The notes under the pieces are model-generated. The model made no database searches. It was not told where the DNA came from and saw nothing but the letters and a program-made list of their open reading frames with translations. A DNA stretch of 64,000 nt, from the sequence record MT446390.1; one strand, 5' to 3'. How positions within the stretch are numbered: the stretch's first letter is position 1; the number at the start of each line of letters is the position of its first letter. The DNA comes from Escherichia phage TH12. Below are positions 21,172 through 30,940 of this stretch, in pieces. The translations under genes and the position numbers were made by a program.

Positions 21172-21487
21172 TATTAAACCGGTTGATGAGGCCGGTTTAT
21201 CTGAACAAGAATTAGCAGTAAAACACGATAAAGATGATATCGCTAAATTGCTTGACCGCCAAGAAAACGGATTCATTATTGAATCCATGGTTGAACAATT
21301 TGGTATGTCTTATTTAGAAGCAACAACTGCTTTCTTGGAAGAAAATTCTATTCCAGAAACACAATTTGCTAAATTTATTCCTACAGGAATTGTTGAAAAA
21401 ATTACAAGCGAAGCAATTGACGAAAACATGCTTCGCCCATCAGTTGCTCGTGGTGAAAAAACTAATACGTTAGATTTCTTATTATGA
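21149..21487 (+). CDS. 33: late transcription accessory protein gp33
   Basis: 112 aa (T4 gp33 112 aa); MTQFSL... start and C-terminal DFLL recalled from T4. Confidence 0.75.
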   Translation: MTQFSLSDIKPVDEAGLSEQELAVKHDKDDIAKLLDRQENGFIIESMVEQFGMSYLEATTAFLEENSIPETQFAKFIPTGIVEKITSEAIDENMLRPSVARGEKTNTLDFLL

Positions 21488-22167
21488 AATACGTTGTGTA
21501 TAAAACTACCAATAAAATAAATGGTAAAATTTATATAGGCGTACACAAAAAACATAAAGAGAAAGATTGGTATATTGGATCAGGCCGCGCTATATTAGCG
21601 GCCAAAGCTAAATATGGACTAAAAAATTTTTATACCGAAATTCTTTATGAATATGATAATGACAAGGACGCCTATAAAAAAGAAGCAGAATTGGTTAACG
21701 AAGATTTTGTTTTGCGAGATGATACTTATAACTTAGTTCCCGGTGGTAAAGGTGGTCCTGGTAAAAAACAAAGTGATGAAGCTAAAAGGTCTATTTCACT
21801 TTCTAAATTAGGTAAACCTAGATCTGAAGAGACTAAGGCTAAAGTATCTAAAACAAGACTAGAAAGAAAAATACCGTCACCTAATAAGGGTAAGAAACTA
21901 TCTGAAGCTCACAAATTGGCCTTGAGTAAAGTCCGAAAAGGGCGAAAAACGAATAAGCCGATGCCTGATTCAACCAAAGAAGCTCTTAGAATAGCAAATT
22001 CAAAGCCGCATTCTAAAGAAAGAACTATTAAAAAACAAAAACCTATAATTATTGATGGTATAAAATACGCCTCGTGTAAAGAAGTTTCAAATGTTTTTAA
22101 TATTTCTGCGTCTTTAGTTACATATAGACTTAAATCTTCAAAATGGTCCGGATGGAAATATGATTAA
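21484..22167 (+). CDS. free-standing GIY-YIG homing endonuclease (Seg-like)
   Basis: 227 aa; N-terminal VVYKTTNKINGKIYIGVH...YIGSG GIY-YIG module, central repeated basic motifs (NUMOD-like) and C-terminal I-TevI-like DNA-binding segment; overlaps gene 33 stop and gene 59 start. Confidence 0.8.
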   Translation: MKYVVYKTTNKINGKIYIGVHKKHKEKDWYIGSGRAILAAKAKYGLKNFYTEILYEYDNDKDAYKKEAELVNEDFVLRDDTYNLVPGGKGGPGKKQSDEAKRSISLSKLGKPRSEETKAKVSKTRLERKIPSPNKGKKLSEAHKLALSKVRKGRKTNKPMPDSTKEALRIANSKPHSKERTIKKQKPIIIDGIKYASCKEVSNVFNISASLVTYRLKSSKWSGWKYD

Positions 22168-24651: not shown

Positions 24652-25239
24652 ATGCTTAAATTAGTATTCGCATGCGCACCATCTAAAACAGTTGATGATA
24701 AACTGGAATATGCTTTTGGATTAGGTGATGGGCTGCCATGGAAGCATATCAAACAAGATATGAGTAACTTTGCTGCTCGCACTAAAAACACTGTAATGGT
24801 TATGGGTGCTAAGACTTTTGCATCATTACCTCGTCTACTCCCAGATCGTACTCATGTGGTTGTCACTGATATGGCCAGAAAACTGCCTAGGACTAAAAGC
24901 GACGAACTTGCACGGTTCTATATCACCCAAGCAGAATTTATTACCCTGGTGACTGGTAGTGAAATTAACTTGTTCGGCCCTTCAACAGACGTACCGTTTA
25001 AACTTTCTACTGAACATGTTGATGTATCTGTTATCGGCGGTCCTGCTCTATTAAAACAAGCACTGCCTTATGCCGATGAAATTGTGATGACTAAAATCAT
25101 TAAGAAATGTCGTGTTAATTCAGACGTTCAACTTGATAAAGATTTCATCCAAGATATTATGCTTCAACGTTCTATGGTAGAATCTCATTACTACAGAATC
25201 GATGAACTCACCGAAATTACTGAGAGCGTATATAAATGA
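24652..25239 (+). CDS. frd: dihydrofolate reductase
   Basis: 195 aa; FGLGDGLPW, VMGAKTF, VIGGPALL motifs; T4 Frd-like; stop overlaps td start. Confidence 0.85.
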   Translation: MLKLVFACAPSKTVDDKLEYAFGLGDGLPWKHIKQDMSNFAARTKNTVMVMGAKTFASLPRLLPDRTHVVVTDMARKLPRTKSDELARFYITQAEFITLVTGSEINLFGPSTDVPFKLSTEHVDVSVIGGPALLKQALPYADEIVMTKIIKKCRVNSDVQLDKDFIQDIMLQRSMVESHYYRIDELTEITESVYK

Positions 25240-25784
25240 AACAATACCAATACCTGATTAATGATATCCTAGAAAATGGCTACGAAACAGACGACCGTAC
25301 AGGCACAGGAACAATTGCCCTGTTCGGAACTAAATTACGTTGGGACCTGACTAAAGGATTCCCTGCAGTAACAACTAAGAAATTAGCATGGAAAGCTTGT
25401 ATTGCCGAGTTACTGTGGTTCATGTCCGGTTCTACTAATGTTAATGAATTACGTCTTCGTACTCATGGTAGTCTAATTGAAGGTAAAACTATTTGGGACG
25501 ATAATTACGAAAATCAGGCAAAAGACCTTGGTTATCATAGTGGTGAACTTGGTCCTATATATGGTAAACAATGGCGTGATTTCGGTGGTGTGGACCAATT
25601 AGTTGAAACAATCGACCGTATTAAAAAATTACCAACTGATCGTCGTCAAATTGTTTCTGCCTGGAACCCTGCCGAAATTGACCAAATGGCTCTTCCTCCT
25701 TGCCATATGTTCTATCAGTTCAATGTGCGTAATGGTCATCTTGATTTACAATGGTATCAACGCAGTGTAGATGTTTTCTTAGGT
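25236..25784 (+). CDS. td: thymidylate synthase, exon 1
   Basis: ThyA N-terminal motifs; ORF ends in ...SVDVFLG immediately followed by TAA that begins the intron. Confidence 0.9.
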
Positions 25785-26800
25785 TAATTTAGGCCTAGGT
25801 ATAAGGTGACTTATACTTGTAATCTATCTAAACGGGGGACCTCTCTAGTAGACAATCCCGTGCTAAATTGTAGGACTACCCTTTAATAAATACTTCTATA
25901 TAAAAAGAGGTGTTTATGAAAAGCGGAATTTATCAGATTAAAAACACTTTAAACGGTAAAGTGTATGTTGGAAGTTCTAAAGATTTTGAGAAAAGATGGA
26001 AGAGACATTTTAAAGACCTTGAAAACGGTGTTCACTCTTCTATAAAATTTCAAAGGTCTTTTAATAAACATGGTAATGTTTTTGAATGCTCTGTACTGGA
26101 AGAAATTCCATATGAGAAAGATTTGATTATTGAACGAGAAAATTTTTGGATTAAAGAGCTAAATTCTAAAATTAATGGATATAATATTGCTGATGCGTCT
26201 TTTGGCGATGTGCTTTCAAATCATCCATTAAAAGAAGAAATTGCTAAGAAACGAGCTGAAACTGTTAAAGCTAAGATGCTTAAGCTTGGTCCTGATGGTC
26301 GGAAAGCTCTTTATGGTAAACACGGAAGTAAAAATGGCCGATGGAATCCAGAAAACCACAAGTTTTGTAAATGCGGTGTTCGCATACCATCTTCGGCTGA
26401 TACTTGTGGAAAGTGCCGAAAACGTTCAGGTGAAAATAACCCGTTCTTTAATCACAAACATTCAGAAAAAACTAAAACTAAACTATCCGAAAAGATGAAA
26501 GGCAAAAAGCCAGCTAACATCAAAAAGATTTCATGCGATGGGATTATTTTTGAATGTGCAGCCGATGCGGCTAGACATTTTGAAATTTCATCAGGATTAG
26601 TTACTTACCGTGTAAAATCTGATAAGTGGAATTGGTTCTACATAAATGCCTAACGACTATCCCTTTAGGGAGTAGGGTCAAGTGACTCGAAACGATAGAC
26701 AACTTGCTTTAACAAGTTGGAGATATAGTCTGCTCTGCATGGTGACATGCAGCTGGATATAATTCCGGGATAAGATTAACGACCTTATCTGAACATAATG
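25785..26800 (+). mobile_element. td group I self-splicing intron (1016 nt) carrying I-TevI
   Basis: Begins TAATTTAGGCCTAGGTATAAGGTG and ends ...GGATAAGATTAACGACCTTATCTGAACATAATG, very close to recalled T4 td intron ends; splits the conserved ThyA peptide DVFLG|LPFNIASYA. Confidence 0.9.
25916..26653 (+). CDS. intron-encoded GIY-YIG homing endonuclease I-TevI
   Basis: 245 aa from ATG 25916; MKSGIYQIKNTLNGKVYVGS... and C-terminal ISCDGIIFECAADAARHFEISSGLVTYRVKSDKWNWFYINA match recalled I-TevI. Confidence 0.9.
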   Translation: MKSGIYQIKNTLNGKVYVGSSKDFEKRWKRHFKDLENGVHSSIKFQRSFNKHGNVFECSVLEEIPYEKDLIIERENFWIKELNSKINGYNIADASFGDVLSNHPLKEEIAKKRAETVKAKMLKLGPDGRKALYGKHGSKNGRWNPENHKFCKCGVRIPSSADTCGKCRKRSGENNPFFNHKHSEKTKTKLSEKMKGKKPANIKKISCDGIIFECAADAARHFEISSGLVTYRVKSDKWNWFYINA

Positions 26801-27112
26801 CTACCGTTCAACATTGCCTCGTACGCTGCCTTGACGCATATTGTAGCGAAGATGTGTAACCTTATCCCGGGTGATTTAGTGTTCTCAGGCGGCAACACGC
26901 ATATCTACAGCAATCATGTAGAACAATGCAAAGAAGTTCTTCGTCGTGAGCCTAAAGAACTGTGTGAACTTAAAATTGATTGGCCTGAAGGATTCTCTGA
27001 TTGGAGCACGACATTACAGCTTCATTGGGTAACAGAGCATATGAATCCGAGTGATTTCATTCTTAAAAATTACGAATCACATCCAGTTATCAAAGCTAAA
27101 ATGGCGGTATAA
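26801..27112 (+). CDS. td: thymidylate synthase, exon 2
   Basis: Begins LPFNIASYA (ThyA active-site region continuation); exons sum to 286 aa as in T4. Confidence 0.9.
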   Translation, partial: LPFNIASYAALTHIVAKMCNLIPGDLVFSGGNTHIYSNHVEQCKEVLRREPKELCELKIDWPEGFSDWSTTLQLHWVTEHMNPSDFILKNYESHPVIKAKMAV

Positions 27113-27455: not shown

Positions 27456-29711
27456 ATGCAAGTAACTAAGAGCAGTGGGGTATCCCAAAATTTTGATGCA
27501 CAGAAAATTATTCAAGTCTTAACTTGGCAGTGTGAAGGAACACAAATCGACCCATACGAATTGTATGAAGAAATTAAGACTCATCTGGTTGATGGGATGA
27601 GCACCAAAGATATCCAGAAGATTTGTATTAAAGTTGCAGCTAACTTGATTTCTGTCGAAGAACCTGACTATCAATATGTTGCCGCTAAAGGATTAATGTT
27701 TGCACTTCGTAAAGATGTGTATGGGCAGTTTGAACCGCCTGCTTTTATCGACCATATTTCTTATTGTGTTAATGAAGGCAAATACGACCCTGAGCTGTTG
27801 TCTCAATATTCAGCAGAAGAAATCATTTATCTCGATTCACAGATTAAACATGAACGAGACTTTGACCTGACTTATGCTGGTGCTATGCAGCTTAAAGAAA
27901 AATATCTAGTTAAAGATAAAACAACTGGGAAGATTTATGAAACTCCACAGTTTGCTATCATGGCTATTGGCATGGCCTTACATCAAGACGAAACTCATGA
28001 CCGTTTGAAACATATTATTCGTTTTTATGATGCCGTTTCTACTCATCAAGTTTCATTGCCAACCCCAATTATGGCAGGTGCTCGTACTCCAACTCGCCAG
28101 TTCTCTAGTTGTGTAGTTATTGAAGCCGGTGATTCGTTAAAATCTATTAACAAAACTTCAGCATCAATTATTGAATATATTTCTAAACGAGCTGGTATCG
28201 GTATCAACGTTGGTATGCTTCGTGCAGAAGGTTCTAAGATTGGTATGGGTGAAGTTCGACATACGGGTGTTATTCCATTCTGGAAACATTTCCAAACTGC
28301 AGTAAAATCTTGTTCTCAAGGTGGTATTCGTGGTGGTGCTGCTACAGCGTATTATCCGATGTGGCACTTAGAAGTAGAGAACCTGTTGGTTCTGAAAAAT
28401 AACAAAGGCGTGGATGAAAACCGTATTAGACATATGGACTACGGAATTCAGATTAATGACCTTATGATGGAACGCCTTGGTAAAAATGATTATATTACTT
28501 TATTTAGCCCTCACGAAATGTCAGGCGAACTATACTACTCGTTCTTTGAAGATCAAGATAAATTCCGTGAGCTTTATGAGAAAGCTGAAAAAGACCCAAC
28601 AATCAGAAAGAAAAGAATCAAAGCACTAGAACTCTTTGAATTGTTCATGACTGAACGCTCTGGTACTGCTCGAATTTATCCACAATTCGTTGATAACACG
28701 AACAACTACACTCCATTTATTCGTGAAAAAGCTCCAATTCGACAGAGTAACTTATGTTGTGAAATCGCTATTCCAACTAATGATGTGAATGGTCCTGATG
28801 CTGAAATTGGTTTATGCACATTATCTGCATTCGTGTTAGATAAATTTGATTGGCAAGACCAAGATAAAATTAATGAACTTGCTGAAGTGCAAGTACGTGC
28901 ACTTGATAACTTGTTAGACTATCAAGACTATCCGGTTCCAGAAGCTTTAAAAGCTAAAAAGCGTCGAAACCTAGGTATTGGTGTTACTAACTATGCAGCC
29001 TGGTTGGCTTCTAACTTTGCTTCATACGAAGATGCTAACGATTTGACTCATGAATTGTTTGAGAGATTACAATATGGCCTTATCAAAGCGTCAATCAAAC
29101 TCGCCAAAGAAAAAGGACCTTGTGAGTATTATTCAGACACTAAATGGTCTAGAGGCGAATTACCTATCGACTGGTACAATAAAAAGATTGACCAAATCGC
29201 AGCCCCGAACTACGTCTGTGACTGGGAAGAACTTCGAGCTGAACTCAAAGAACATGGAATTCGTAACAGCACACTTAGTGCTCTCATGCCATGCGAATCA
29301 AGCAGTCAAGTCTCAAATAGCACAAACGGTATTGAACCACCTCGTGGCCCAGTAAGTATTAAAGAATCTAAAGAAGGTAATTTCCGTCAAGTAGTTCCTA
29401 ATATTGAACACAACATGGGTCTTTATGACTATGCGTGGAAACTCGCTAAGAAAGGTAATAAGCCTTATCTGACACAAGTTGTTATCATGTTAAAATGGGT
29501 GTGCCAATCTGCTTCTGCTAATACATACTACGACCCTTCAGTCTTTGAGAAAGGCAAAGTGCCAATGTCTGTAATGCTTGATGACTTGCTTTACTTCTGG
29601 TACTTTGGTGGTAAGAACCTTTACTATCATAACACTCGAGATGGTTCTGGTACAGATGACTATGAGTTAGAAACGCCTAAAGCTGAAGATTGCTCCGCTT
29701 GTAAGCTTTAA
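27456..29711 (+). CDS. nrdA: aerobic ribonucleotide reductase large subunit
   Basis: 751 aa with class Ia RNR large subunit features (ATP cone, active-site Cys motifs, C-terminal CxxC). Confidence 0.9.
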   Translation: MQVTKSSGVSQNFDAQKIIQVLTWQCEGTQIDPYELYEEIKTHLVDGMSTKDIQKICIKVAANLISVEEPDYQYVAAKGLMFALRKDVYGQFEPPAFIDHISYCVNEGKYDPELLSQYSAEEIIYLDSQIKHERDFDLTYAGAMQLKEKYLVKDKTTGKIYETPQFAIMAIGMALHQDETHDRLKHIIRFYDAVSTHQVSLPTPIMAGARTPTRQFSSCVVIEAGDSLKSINKTSASIIEYISKRAGIGINVGMLRAEGSKIGMGEVRHTGVIPFWKHFQTAVKSCSQGGIRGGAATAYYPMWHLEVENLLVLKNNKGVDENRIRHMDYGIQINDLMMERLGKNDYITLFSPHEMSGELYYSFFEDQDKFRELYEKAEKDPTIRKKRIKALELFELFMTERSGTARIYPQFVDNTNNYTPFIREKAPIRQSNLCCEIAIPTNDVNGPDAEIGLCTLSAFVLDKFDWQDQDKINELAEVQVRALDNLLDYQDYPVPEALKAKKRRNLGIGVTNYAAWLASNFASYEDANDLTHELFERLQYGLIKASIKLAKEKGPCEYYSDTKWSRGELPIDWYNKKIDQIAAPNYVCDWEELRAELKEHGIRNSTLSALMPCESSSQVSNSTNGIEPPRGPVSIKESKEGNFRQVVPNIEHNMGLYDYAWKLAKKGNKPYLTQVVIMLKWVCQSASANTYYDPSVFEKGKVPMSVMLDDLLYFWYFGGKNLYYHNTRDGSGTDDYELETPKAEDCSACKL

Positions 29712-29761
29712 GAATTTTGTTTATAATTGACTCATGGATGAGTCACTATTGAGAGAATATA

Positions 29762-30940
29762 ATGAGTACAGTTTTTAATACCCAAAAAGTTGATGTTTTG
29801 AATGAACCAATGTTCTTTGGTTCCGGTCTTGGCCTTGCGCGTTACGATATTCAACGCCATAAAGTTTTTGAAGAGCTTATTGAAAAGCAATTGTCGTTTT
29901 TTTGGCGCCCTGAAGAGGTAAACTTGATGTTGGACTCTGCGCAGTTCAATAAGCTTCCACAGTTCCAACAGAACATCTTTACGAACAACCTTAAGTATCA
30001 ATCATTATTGGATTCTATCCAAGGCAGGGCACCATCTGCGGTACTTATGGCATTGCTTTCCGACCCTTCATTAGATACATGGGTTGCTACATGGACATTC
30101 AGTGAAACCATTCACTCTCGTTCATATACTCATATCATGCGAAATCTTTATACTGATCCATCGAAGGTATTTGATGAGATTGTATTAGATGAAGCAATTA
30201 TGAAACGTGCGGAATCAATCGGCAAATATTATGATGATGTTCTAGTTAAAACACGTGAATGGGAAAATGCTAAAGAAATTTTTAAATGTTTTTCCGAAAA
30301 TGAATATGATTTGGATGCATATTCAAATAGTCTTATGCATGTGGAAGAATGTAAACGTGCATTAATGAAGTCTCTTTATCTCTGCTTACACGTTATCAAC
30401 GCCTTAGAAGCTATTCGTTTTTACGTATCATTTGCATGTACCTTTAACTTCCATAAAAATATGGAAATTATGGAAGGCAATGCAAAGATTATGAAGTTCA
30501 TTGCTCGTGACGAACAACTCCACCTCAAGGGTACTCAGTACATTATCCGTCAACTTCAATCTGGTACTGATGGGGATGAATGGGTTCAAATTGCTAAAGA
30601 GTGTGAGCAAGAAGCAGTAGATATCTTTATGGAAGTAAATAGTCAAGAGAAGGAATGGGCTGCACACCTCTTTAAAGATGGTACATGTCCAGGTATCAAT
30701 ACGCAGAGTATGTGTGCTTTTGTTGATTACTTGACTGTGTCTCGTATTAAACAGTGCGGTTTGCCATGCCCAATCACTGATGCTCCGACCAAGCATCCAT
30801 ATCCTTGGATTCGTGAATATCTGAACTCCGATTTAGTTCAAGCAGCTCCTCAGGAAGTTGAAATCAGTTCTTATCTTGTCGCACAAATTGATAATGATGT
30901 AGACCAAAATGTAATCAATTCATACAAAAAATATTTCTAA
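29762..30940 (+). CDS. nrdB: aerobic ribonucleotide reductase small subunit (uninterrupted, no intron)
   Basis: 392 aa continuous ORF with di-iron ligand motifs; T4 nrdB carries an intron that is absent here. Confidence 0.9.
   Translation: MSTVFNTQKVDVLNEPMFFGSGLGLARYDIQRHKVFEELIEKQLSFFWRPEEVNLMLDSAQFNKLPQFQQNIFTNNLKYQSLLDSIQGRAPSAVLMALLSDPSLDTWVATWTFSETIHSRSYTHIMRNLYTDPSKVFDEIVLDEAIMKRAESIGKYYDDVLVKTREWENAKEIFKCFSENEYDLDAYSNSLMHVEECKRALMKSLYLCLHVINALEAIRFYVSFACTFNFHKNMEIMEGNAKIMKFIARDEQLHLKGTQYIIRQLQSGTDGDEWVQIAKECEQEAVDIFMEVNSQEKEWAAHLFKDGTCPGINTQSMCAFVDYLTVSRIKQCGLPCPITDAPTKHPYPWIREYLNSDLVQAAPQEVEISSYLVAQIDNDVDQNVINSYKKYF

Follow-up and report, generated by a model that had tools for sequence, protein, structure and literature searches.

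An I-TevI-encoding td group I intron of the TuIa type at the canonical td site of a Mosigvirus phage

In a stretch of 64,000 nucleotides from Escherichia phage TH12 (sequence record MT446390.1; hereafter the window), the reading frame of thymidylate synthase breaks off and is taken up again about one kilobase further on. The locus raises the question of what interrupts the td gene, whether the insert is still capable of splicing and moving, and how it reached this phage. With a probability of roughly 0.93, we regard it as a mobile T-even td group I intron of the TuIa type, located at the canonical td site of a Mosigvirus and derived by homing.

The initial annotation had the td frame breaking after SVDVFLG and resuming at LPFNIASYA 1016 nt later, and this is what we found. 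The two exons and the insert are located as follows:

25236-25784, + strand: td exon 1 (thymidylate synthase), 183 codons, ending in ...SVDVFLG; Pfam Thymidylat_synt 1-175, E 1.3e-63
25785-26800, + strand: td group I intron, 1016 nt, subgroup IA type with P7.1/P7.2, TuIa-type variant
26801-27112, + strand: td exon 2, 103 codons and a stop, starting with LPFNIASYA; Pfam Thymidylat_synt 176-266, E 4.7e-26

The exons are in the same frame, exactly 1016 nt apart, and the first three bases of the intron (25785-25787) form a TAA in frame with exon 1. As the exons match adjacent halves of the Thymidylat_synt profile, the break is a clean insertion between codons and not a frameshift. In an alignment with the T4 td locus, the identity between the window and T4 was 78.7% and 68.9% for the two exons and 87.8% at the nucleotide level for the I-TevI ORF, and the intron as a whole was about 90% identical to the T4 td intron. 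The ends of the insert had been said to be almost those of the T4 intron, and they are indeed very similar, with identities of 93.9% over the 131 nt at the 5′ side and 98.6% over the 147 nt at the 3′ side. td is best annotated as a single spliced gene that carries a homing endonuclease in its intron, and not as two fragments plus a stray ORF.

Further assignment of the insert to the td group I introns comes from its secondary structure and from matches of both its halves to the Rfam Intron_gpI model. All helices from P1 to P9.2 were found, together with the internal guide sequence GCCUAG and a terminal G. The elements of the core are listed below.

25779-25784 / 25793-25798, + strand: P1, exon UUAGGU paired with the internal guide GCCUAG; the U25784-G25793 wobble is the 5′ splice site
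25799-25873, + strand: 5′ core, holding P2, the 5′ strand of P3, P4, P5 and the 5′ strands of P6 and P6a; Rfam model positions 1-115
25799-25805 / 25810-25816, + strand: P2
25823-25828 (5′) / 26694-26699 (3′), + strand: P3, pseudoknotted with P7
25832-25837 / 25856-25861, + strand: P4
25842-25844 / 25850-25852, + strand: P5, 3 bp
25862-25863 (5′) / 26648-26649 (3′), + strand: P6
25869-25873 (5′) / 26638-26642 (3′), + strand: P6a, UGUAG/CUACA, its strands flanking the I-TevI ORF
26638-26789, + strand: 3′ core, from the 3′ strands of P6a and P6 to P9.2; Rfam model positions 125-253
26655-26659 / 26726-26730, + strand: P7, GACUA/UAGUC, the guanosine-binding helix, pseudoknotted with P3
26660-26663 / 26668-26671, + strand: P7.1
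26675-26679 / 26684-26688, + strand: P7.2, with three two-sided changes in PspYZU05
26700-26706 / 26713-26719, + strand: P8, with two-sided changes
26735-26741 / 26746-26752, + strand: P9
26753-26757 / 26764-26768, + strand: P9.1
26769-26774 / 26784-26789, + strand: P9.2, with two-sided changes
26800, + strand: terminal (omega) G, the 3′ splice site, directly before the in-frame CTA of exon 2 and positioned as in T4

All 74 pairs of the 14 helices, the P3/P7 pseudoknot included, are standard in the window. The extra helices P7.1 and P7.2 are present between P7 and the 3′ strand of P3. Extra helices of this type define subgroup IA, the type of the T-even phages, and the definition of the group I subgroups reportedly goes back to Michel and Westhof in 1990.

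We evaluated the helix model on an alignment of seven td intron cores (window, T4, U5, Elenatom, 236Ecol005PP, Klebsiella phage HMGUkp2 and Pseudomonas phage PspYZU05). Across the alignment 98.8% of the cells pair, with 100% in P1, P3, P4, P5, P6, P7, P7.1 and P7.2 and 95.9% in P8, and the observed pairing values were reached by none of 500 shuffles. Controls with the partners slid by 1-3 columns gave 30-43% pairing and 0-4 two-sided pairs, although this comparison covers seven sequences and is biased in favour of the model, which was taken from the window itself. The independent part of the helix evidence is the two-sided changes, which affect eight pairs in P6a, P7.2, P8 and P9.2. The minimum free energy (MFE) fold of the ORF-deleted core recovered every nested helix (-78.4 kcal/mol, z -2.6), and pairing is preserved by all substitutions relative to T4 that fall inside helices. 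P1 is paired in 7/7 of the introns, and three of its pairs vary, on one side only. We rejected the P1 differences from T4 as compensatory evidence, because they are one-sided and wobble-tolerant and show kept pairing only. Another candidate, an A/G difference at 26667 taken for a pair-preserving change in P7.1, was discarded as well, as the position sits in the tetraloop. The 5-bp P5 and the P6a register of Rfam do not fit this intron; the 3-bp P5 and the UGUAG/CUACA P6a are backed by both the MFE fold and the alignment.

Searching the whole window with Rfam at the gathering threshold returned no match. In E-value mode, Intron_gpI (RF00028) matched 26522-26752 with 36.2 bits (E 2.6e-7), the gathering score being 50 bits. 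The two sides of the core were also recognised separately, 25774-25880 at model positions 1-115 (15.2 bits, E 0.047) and 26636-26752 at model positions 125-253 (27.3 bits, E 1.7e-5), and the Rfam consensus aligned with AACGACUA and AGAUAUAGUC of the window core. The score stays below the threshold because about 760 nt holding the ORF split the core halves and the covariance model cannot span them. The ORF-less td intron of Elenatom, which is 97.5% identical to the window over the common stretches, reached 70.3 bits.

Regarding the host, a 25-kb comparison of the backbone of the window gave 96-97% identity to phage 55, AV110, SA79RD and others with Mosigvirus taxonomy, and the phage, as judged from its sequence, is a Mosigvirus (RB69-like). 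The td gene is intronless, with 861 nt, in RB69 (the type species), phage 55, SA79RD, ST0 and LF82-1, and the intron is carried by about 18 of about 143 Mosigvirus-level records (about 12%). Copies at least 99% identical to that of the window were present in 21 phage records from two genera. More broadly, about 200 phage records contain the td intron over at least 80% of its length, and 118 contain the T4 nrdB intron to the same extent. A Pseudomonas phage holds a copy of the td intron with 72% identity, and ORF-less td introns occur naturally in Elenatom and 236Ecol005PP. Several GenBank records already annotate a split td with a homing endonuclease.

The exon sequences around the insertion site carry a signature of transfer, composed of the following elements:

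25757-25784, + strand: upstream part of the donor-type, putatively co-converted exon tract, -28 to -1
25758-25762, + strand: I-TevI cleavage motif CAACG (CNNNG) in exon 1, -27 to -23 from the insertion site
26801-26860, + strand: downstream part of the donor-type, putatively co-converted exon tract, +1 to about +60

The intron of VEc20, a Tequatrovirus, is 99.7% identical to that of the window (3 differences in 1016 nt), while exon 1 and exon 2 are only 78.7% and 72.2% identical. Next to the intron, the exons of the two phages agree much more closely, with one difference (at -4) in the last 33 nt of exon 1 and none in the first 47 nt of exon 2. The closest intronless td allele, that of phage 55, differs from the window at 23 of 861 nt, and 15 of these differences lie within the 88 nt between -28 and +60. 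A cluster of this kind has a binomial probability of 3e-10, and in 200,000 random placements no 88-nt stretch ever collected 15 differences. Within this tract, the TH12 sequence equals TuIa save at two positions. Finally, intron-plus LF82-4 and intronless LF82-1 differ at 12 of 861 nt, all of them between -28 and +69. These two phages have a common host and isolation site.

The first informative marker of the tract, at -28, adjoins the CAACG motif; the upstream end is bounded only between -28 and about -111, as informative sites are lacking there. The review literature locates the I-TevI cuts 23 and 25 nt on the upstream side of the intron insertion point, names CXXXG as critical and reports that homing of the T4 intron co-converts flanking exon markers. 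Our best reading of the alignments is that the intron has recently moved between Tequatrovirus and Mosigvirus by I-TevI homing, in either direction and in one or more events, and the td gene of the window looks like a converted allele of the phage 55/LF82-1 type. TuIa was rejected as a proof of sharing across the genera, since its exons are SA79RD-like (Mosigvirus-like) despite its Tequatrovirus label, and VEc20 was used instead. The synonymous divergence between the window and T4 was 0.50 for I-TevI and 1.65 for td exon 1; with a value about a third of that of the td exons in I-TevI, the intron lineages are younger than those of the hosts.

The CNNNG target is present at -27 to -23 also in intronless alleles, as CAACG in ST0, SA79RD and RB69, while phage 55 and LF82-1 have CAGAG there. 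The idea that the allele with the phage 55-type site resists I-TevI turned out to be unsupported, as CNNNG is kept and both the window and LF82-4 look converted from that allele.

Around a genuine intron, the flanking tract could also have arisen by ordinary homologous recombination within td, or because the intronless allele of the phage 55/LF82-1 type diverged, instead of by I-TevI co-conversion. Across Mosigvirus, td as a whole is a mosaic: the variable block of exon 2 comes in at least three haplotypes, a second patch in exon 1 of the window (25667-25682) matches RB69, SA79RD and TuIa and not phage 55, and intronless ST0 and SA79RD already hold most of the donor tract, where they differ from the window only at -4, -1 and +3. 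Moreover, the phage 55-type site is synonymously recoded (CAACGC to CAGAGA; GGT/CTACCG to GGC/TTGCCA, where the slash marks the intron position), and it is this form that might be derived. However, three independent comparisons all have the insertion site at the centre of the tract, the differences between LF82-4 and LF82-1 fall inside it without exception (12/12), and in VEc20 a near-identical intron with near-identical flanks is embedded in exons of 72-79% identity. An A at -4 goes with a TuIa-type intron of at least 99% identity in the four Mosigvirus-type alleles read (window, AV116, SQ17 and TuIa), whereas every intronless td allele read has G; VEc20 has G at this position despite its 99.7% identical intron. 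On balance, we find recombination or divergence of the ordinary kind quite improbable as the origin of the tract.

Homing with co-conversion remains the preferred reading. What the case adds, modestly, is a clean trace of intron homing as it happens in nature, with the LF82-4/LF82-1 and window/VEc20 pairs as handy material for natural co-conversion tract lengths. It is conceivable, but in our view unlikely, that the TuIa-type I-TevI is a natural specificity variant tuned to td sites of the Mosigvirus type and spreading through the genus. If this were true, alleles of the phage 55/LF82-1 type, with synonymously recoded cleavage and insertion sites, would have been converted recently to give those of the window and LF82-4, and these would document a live, datable crossing of a genus boundary by a homing endonuclease.

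The mobility of the intron depends on its endonuclease gene:

25916-26653, + strand: I-TevI gene, 245 codons and a stop, in the P6a loop; its last codons are the 3′ strands of P6a and P6

The initial annotation described this 245-codon ORF as intact, and we can confirm that it is free of frameshifts and encodes four Pfam domains scoring above the cut-offs, namely GIY-YIG (E 8.3e-17), I-TevI_ZnF (1.8e-17), NUMOD3 (2.3e-5) and I-TevI_DNA-bd (1.9e-31). Structure matches were obtained to PDB 1mk0/1ln0 (catalytic, E ~1e-56) and to 1i3j/1t2t (DNA-binding, 1i3j E 5e-66). The protein shares 216/245 residues (88%) with T4 I-TevI, leaving 29 changed. Many of these changed residues fall in the linker and the DNA-binding region. 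The catalytic residues Y6, Y17, R27, E75 and N90 and the four zinc-finger cysteines, all of them important for function, are unchanged relative to T4 I-TevI. The roles of the catalytic Arg, Glu and Asn in the GIY-YIG domain are described in the review literature. I-TevI is under purifying selection: its dN/dS is 0.13 relative to the T4 protein and 0.16 relative to the homologue of PspYZU05. Position 21 is S in the window and A in both TuIa and T4.

A decaying, immobile intron, still splicing with an inactive I-TevI in the manner of I-TevIII of the T4 nrdB intron, would fit the 29 amino-acid differences from T4 and the S21 that departs even from TuIa, and the ORF-less introns of Elenatom and 236Ecol005PP show that loss of the ORF happens. 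Such decay is nevertheless difficult to reconcile with a full-length ORF whose four domains exceed the Pfam thresholds, with the unchanged catalytic residues and zinc-finger cysteines, with both dN/dS values and with the at least 99% identical copies in 21 records of two genera, and we judge it very improbable.

That the insert no longer splices and td is a disrupted pseudogene deserves hardly any credence: splicing is read across from T4 and the gathering search of Rfam gave no match in the window, but every core helix pairs, the helix substitutions relative to T4 keep their pairs, the exon frames are intact and conserved, and many viable phage isolates retain this variant.

Two further elements, located around the start of the ORF, could regulate I-TevI inside the intron:

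25869-25893, + strand: putative operator-like I-TevI site, recognised by its likeness to the homing site and overlapping the late-promoter-like AATAAATA
25886-25917, + strand: predicted RNA hairpin of 12 bp, sequestering the I-TevI Shine-Dalgarno GAGG along with the beginning of the start codon

Compared in register with the homing site of the phage itself (-5 to +15), the operator-like site, here taken as 25869-25890, agrees at 14/20 positions. We take AATAAATA to be late-promoter-like on the basis of the T4 late consensus, TATAAATA. The hairpin has a predicted energy of -11.6 kcal/mol (z -5.8), identical to that of the T4 hairpin, from which it differs in one U-A pair that became U-G; T4 is predicted to form the same fold over the ribosome binding site. 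In T4, I-TevI binds an operator overlapping its late promoter, which leads to autorepression, and according to the review literature the operator is left uncut because no CXXXG lies at the proper distance. Regulation of I-TevI by the hairpin is also reviewed there, with a mention of the TuIa/U5 variants.

For splicing, cleavage and regulation in the window phage we rely on the experiments done with T4, by analogy with which the following course can be proposed. Base pairing in P1, between the internal guide and the last bases of exon 1, would put the U25784-G25793 wobble at the 5′ splice site. This site would be attacked by a free guanosine held in P7, and exon 1 would then attack after G26800. 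The ligated td message would encode a thymidylate synthase of 286 residues, and translation of unspliced RNA would stop at the first codon of the intron, TAA. As in T4, the expression of I-TevI would probably be confined to late infection by a late promoter internal to the intron, I-TevI itself may bind the operator-like site within the intron, and the 12-bp hairpin would hide the ribosome binding site in read-through transcripts. During a mixed infection, I-TevI could bind the insertion site of an intronless td and cut 23 and 25 nt upstream, at CNNNG; repair of the break would use the donor as template for the intron and for short pieces of exon on either side. The tract between about -28 and +60 would then be the scar of homing into the Mosigvirus lineage.

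The second part of the original observation concerned nrdB:

29762-30940, + strand: nrdB, continuous 392-codon frame; Pfam Ribonuc_red_sm

This gene had been reported as intronless, and it is. The 598-nt intron of T4 nrdB appears as the only long gap in the alignment with T4 nrdB, and the vacant site lies exactly between 30437 and 30438. Presumably nrdB either never gained the T4 nrdB intron or lost it. By T4 gene order, the third intron host of T4, nrdD, presumably lies outside the window.

The initial annotation further held that a mosaic intron complement, with td occupied and nrdB vacant, helps to place the phage among its T-even relatives. This suggestion did not survive the comparison with other genomes. 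The intron varies within Mosigvirus and is also found outside this genus: the closest relatives, phage 55 and SA79RD, as well as the type species RB69, have an intronless td, and the same intron is found at 99.7% identity in the Tequatrovirus VEc20, with exons only 72-79% identical. Nor is the combination distinctive, as td-plus/nrdB-minus is common (about 200 against 118 records) and occurs also in T6. The intron tracks horizontal transfer and not descent, and it is therefore unfit as a taxonomic marker. Quirk and colleagues in 1989 and Sandegren and Sjoberg in 2004 are said to have described the T-even introns as patchily distributed and more conserved than the host genes. Our literature search found no work on the I-TevI intron in Mosigvirus. 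A 2010 review tabulated RB69 without homing endonuclease genes and placed the three introns inside the T-even cluster. Unlike the empty RB69 entry of that table, many Mosigvirus genomes are now found to contain the td intron.

Among known systems, the nrdA-nrdB region of the window has the same arrangement as that of RB69. The T4 nrdB intron with its defective I-TevIII is not present, and mobE and nrdB.1 of T4 are absent as well, with nrdA ending at 29711 and nrdB starting at 29762. The T4 td intron (NC_000866 143235-145112) occupies the same position of the same gene, between the Gly codon of VFLG and LPFN, and has a length of 1017 nt (NC_000866.4) compared with 1016 nt in the window. It shares the same P1-P9.2 helices, the ORF in the P6a loop, the hairpin at the ribosome binding site and the operator-like site, and the cores are 94-99% identical. 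The internal guide is GCCUAG in the window and GCCUGA in T4, and exon position -4 is A in the window and G in T4, with all P1 pairs kept. The exons of the window are only 69-79% identical to those of T4 because the host is a Mosigvirus. The td intron with I-TevI is an already known element, of which near-identical copies exist in GenBank; the window adds one more carrier, and the finding matters little beyond correct annotation. The TuIa intron (GenBank AY262157), the first of its type to be deposited, is 99.6% identical to that of the window, with identical cores and four differences, which are confined to the I-TevI ORF and in three cases synonymous. Other carriers of the TuIa type are VEc20, BEU50 and NRG-P0074 (99.6-99.7% over 1016 nt), the AV109-AV118 series and others, and the exon background varies between these phages.

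The exons of td in Mosigvirus are mosaic. Exon 2 contains a hypervariable block at about 26950-27070 (spliced about 700-830, counted on the joined 861-nt td), which encodes a part of thymidylate synthase close to the C-terminus. This block occurs in at least three strongly divergent haplotypes, and the rest of those Mosigvirus td alleles is 95-100% identical. This variability is recombination mosaicism, independent of the intron site.

Haplotypes of the td exon 2 block at about 26950-27070
First haplotype: window, phage 55 and LF82-1
Second haplotype: AV116, SA79RD, ST0 and TuIa
Third haplotype: SQ17

A second, small patch lies in td exon 1 (25667-25682, spliced 432-447), where the window differs from phage 55, the intronless relative with the closest td allele. 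The window is identical to RB69, SA79RD and TuIa at 25679-25682 (spliced 444-447) and matches these three phages only in part at spliced positions 432 and 435. Between the patch and the insertion-site tract, the donor-type exon stretch around the td intron (about -28 to +60), the sequence is phage 55-like for about 75 nt. The patch could represent a discontinuous conversion tract or else an unrelated exchange.

Regarding the td intron of T4, its length depends on the record used. Between identical boundaries, it is 1017 nt in the reference record NC_000866.4, which has an additional T in GGACTTGCCC. The original td entry for T4, M12742, gives 1016 nt, as do most of the remaining T4 records.

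Td introns of other phages include two natural forms without an ORF and a copy in a Pseudomonas phage:

L004 (phage Elenatom) 1201-1520, natural ORF-less td intron, 320 nt
L009 (phage 236Ecol005PP) 101-354, natural ORF-less td intron, 254 nt
L005 (Pseudomonas phage PspYZU05, Jiangsuvirus) 1001-2020, td intron with an I-TevI homologue

The Elenatom record has the ribozyme core overlaid by three small CDSs annotated as 'hypothetical protein', and in the intron of 236Ecol005PP a short GUUC/GAAC hairpin takes the place of the P6a arm. The intron of PspYZU05 shares 72% identity with that of the window, occupies an identical td insertion site and shows compensatory changes in P7.2, P8 and P9.2. This copy extends the range of the td intron element beyond the enterobacterial T-even cluster, an occurrence which a 2010 review regarded as unproven.

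Two further genes of the window were characterised by Pfam matches and by the annotation of relatives, respectively:

21484-22167, plus strand, gene for a free-standing seg-like homing endonuclease of 227 aa
36509-37501, plus strand, 330-codon ORF, counterpart of the phospho-2-dehydro-3-deoxyheptonate aldolase (DAHP synthase) gene

The seg-like ORF is flanked by homologues of gene 33 and gene 59. Its product matched I-TevI_DNA-bd (E 5.8e-12), and the SegE_GIY-YIG and NUMOD3 matches were both under the Pfam cut-offs. An equal ORF is present in phage 55, annotated there as a putative homing endonuclease; RB69 is entered with zero homing endonuclease genes in the table of the 2010 review. With the pseT region on one side and the dCMP deaminase gene on the other, the predicted DAHP synthase ORF represents a metabolic gene of host-like type.

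Aligned with T4 nrdB, the window gene contains 12 extra nt (4 codons) at about 30291-30302, away from the T4 intron site, and totals 392 codons. In T4, the nrdA-nrdB interval holds mobE and nrdB.1, the genes by which the T4 nrdB intron is mobilised in trans. Both genes are missing from the 50-nt nrdA-nrdB gap of the window (29712-29761), an arrangement that is the same in RB69.
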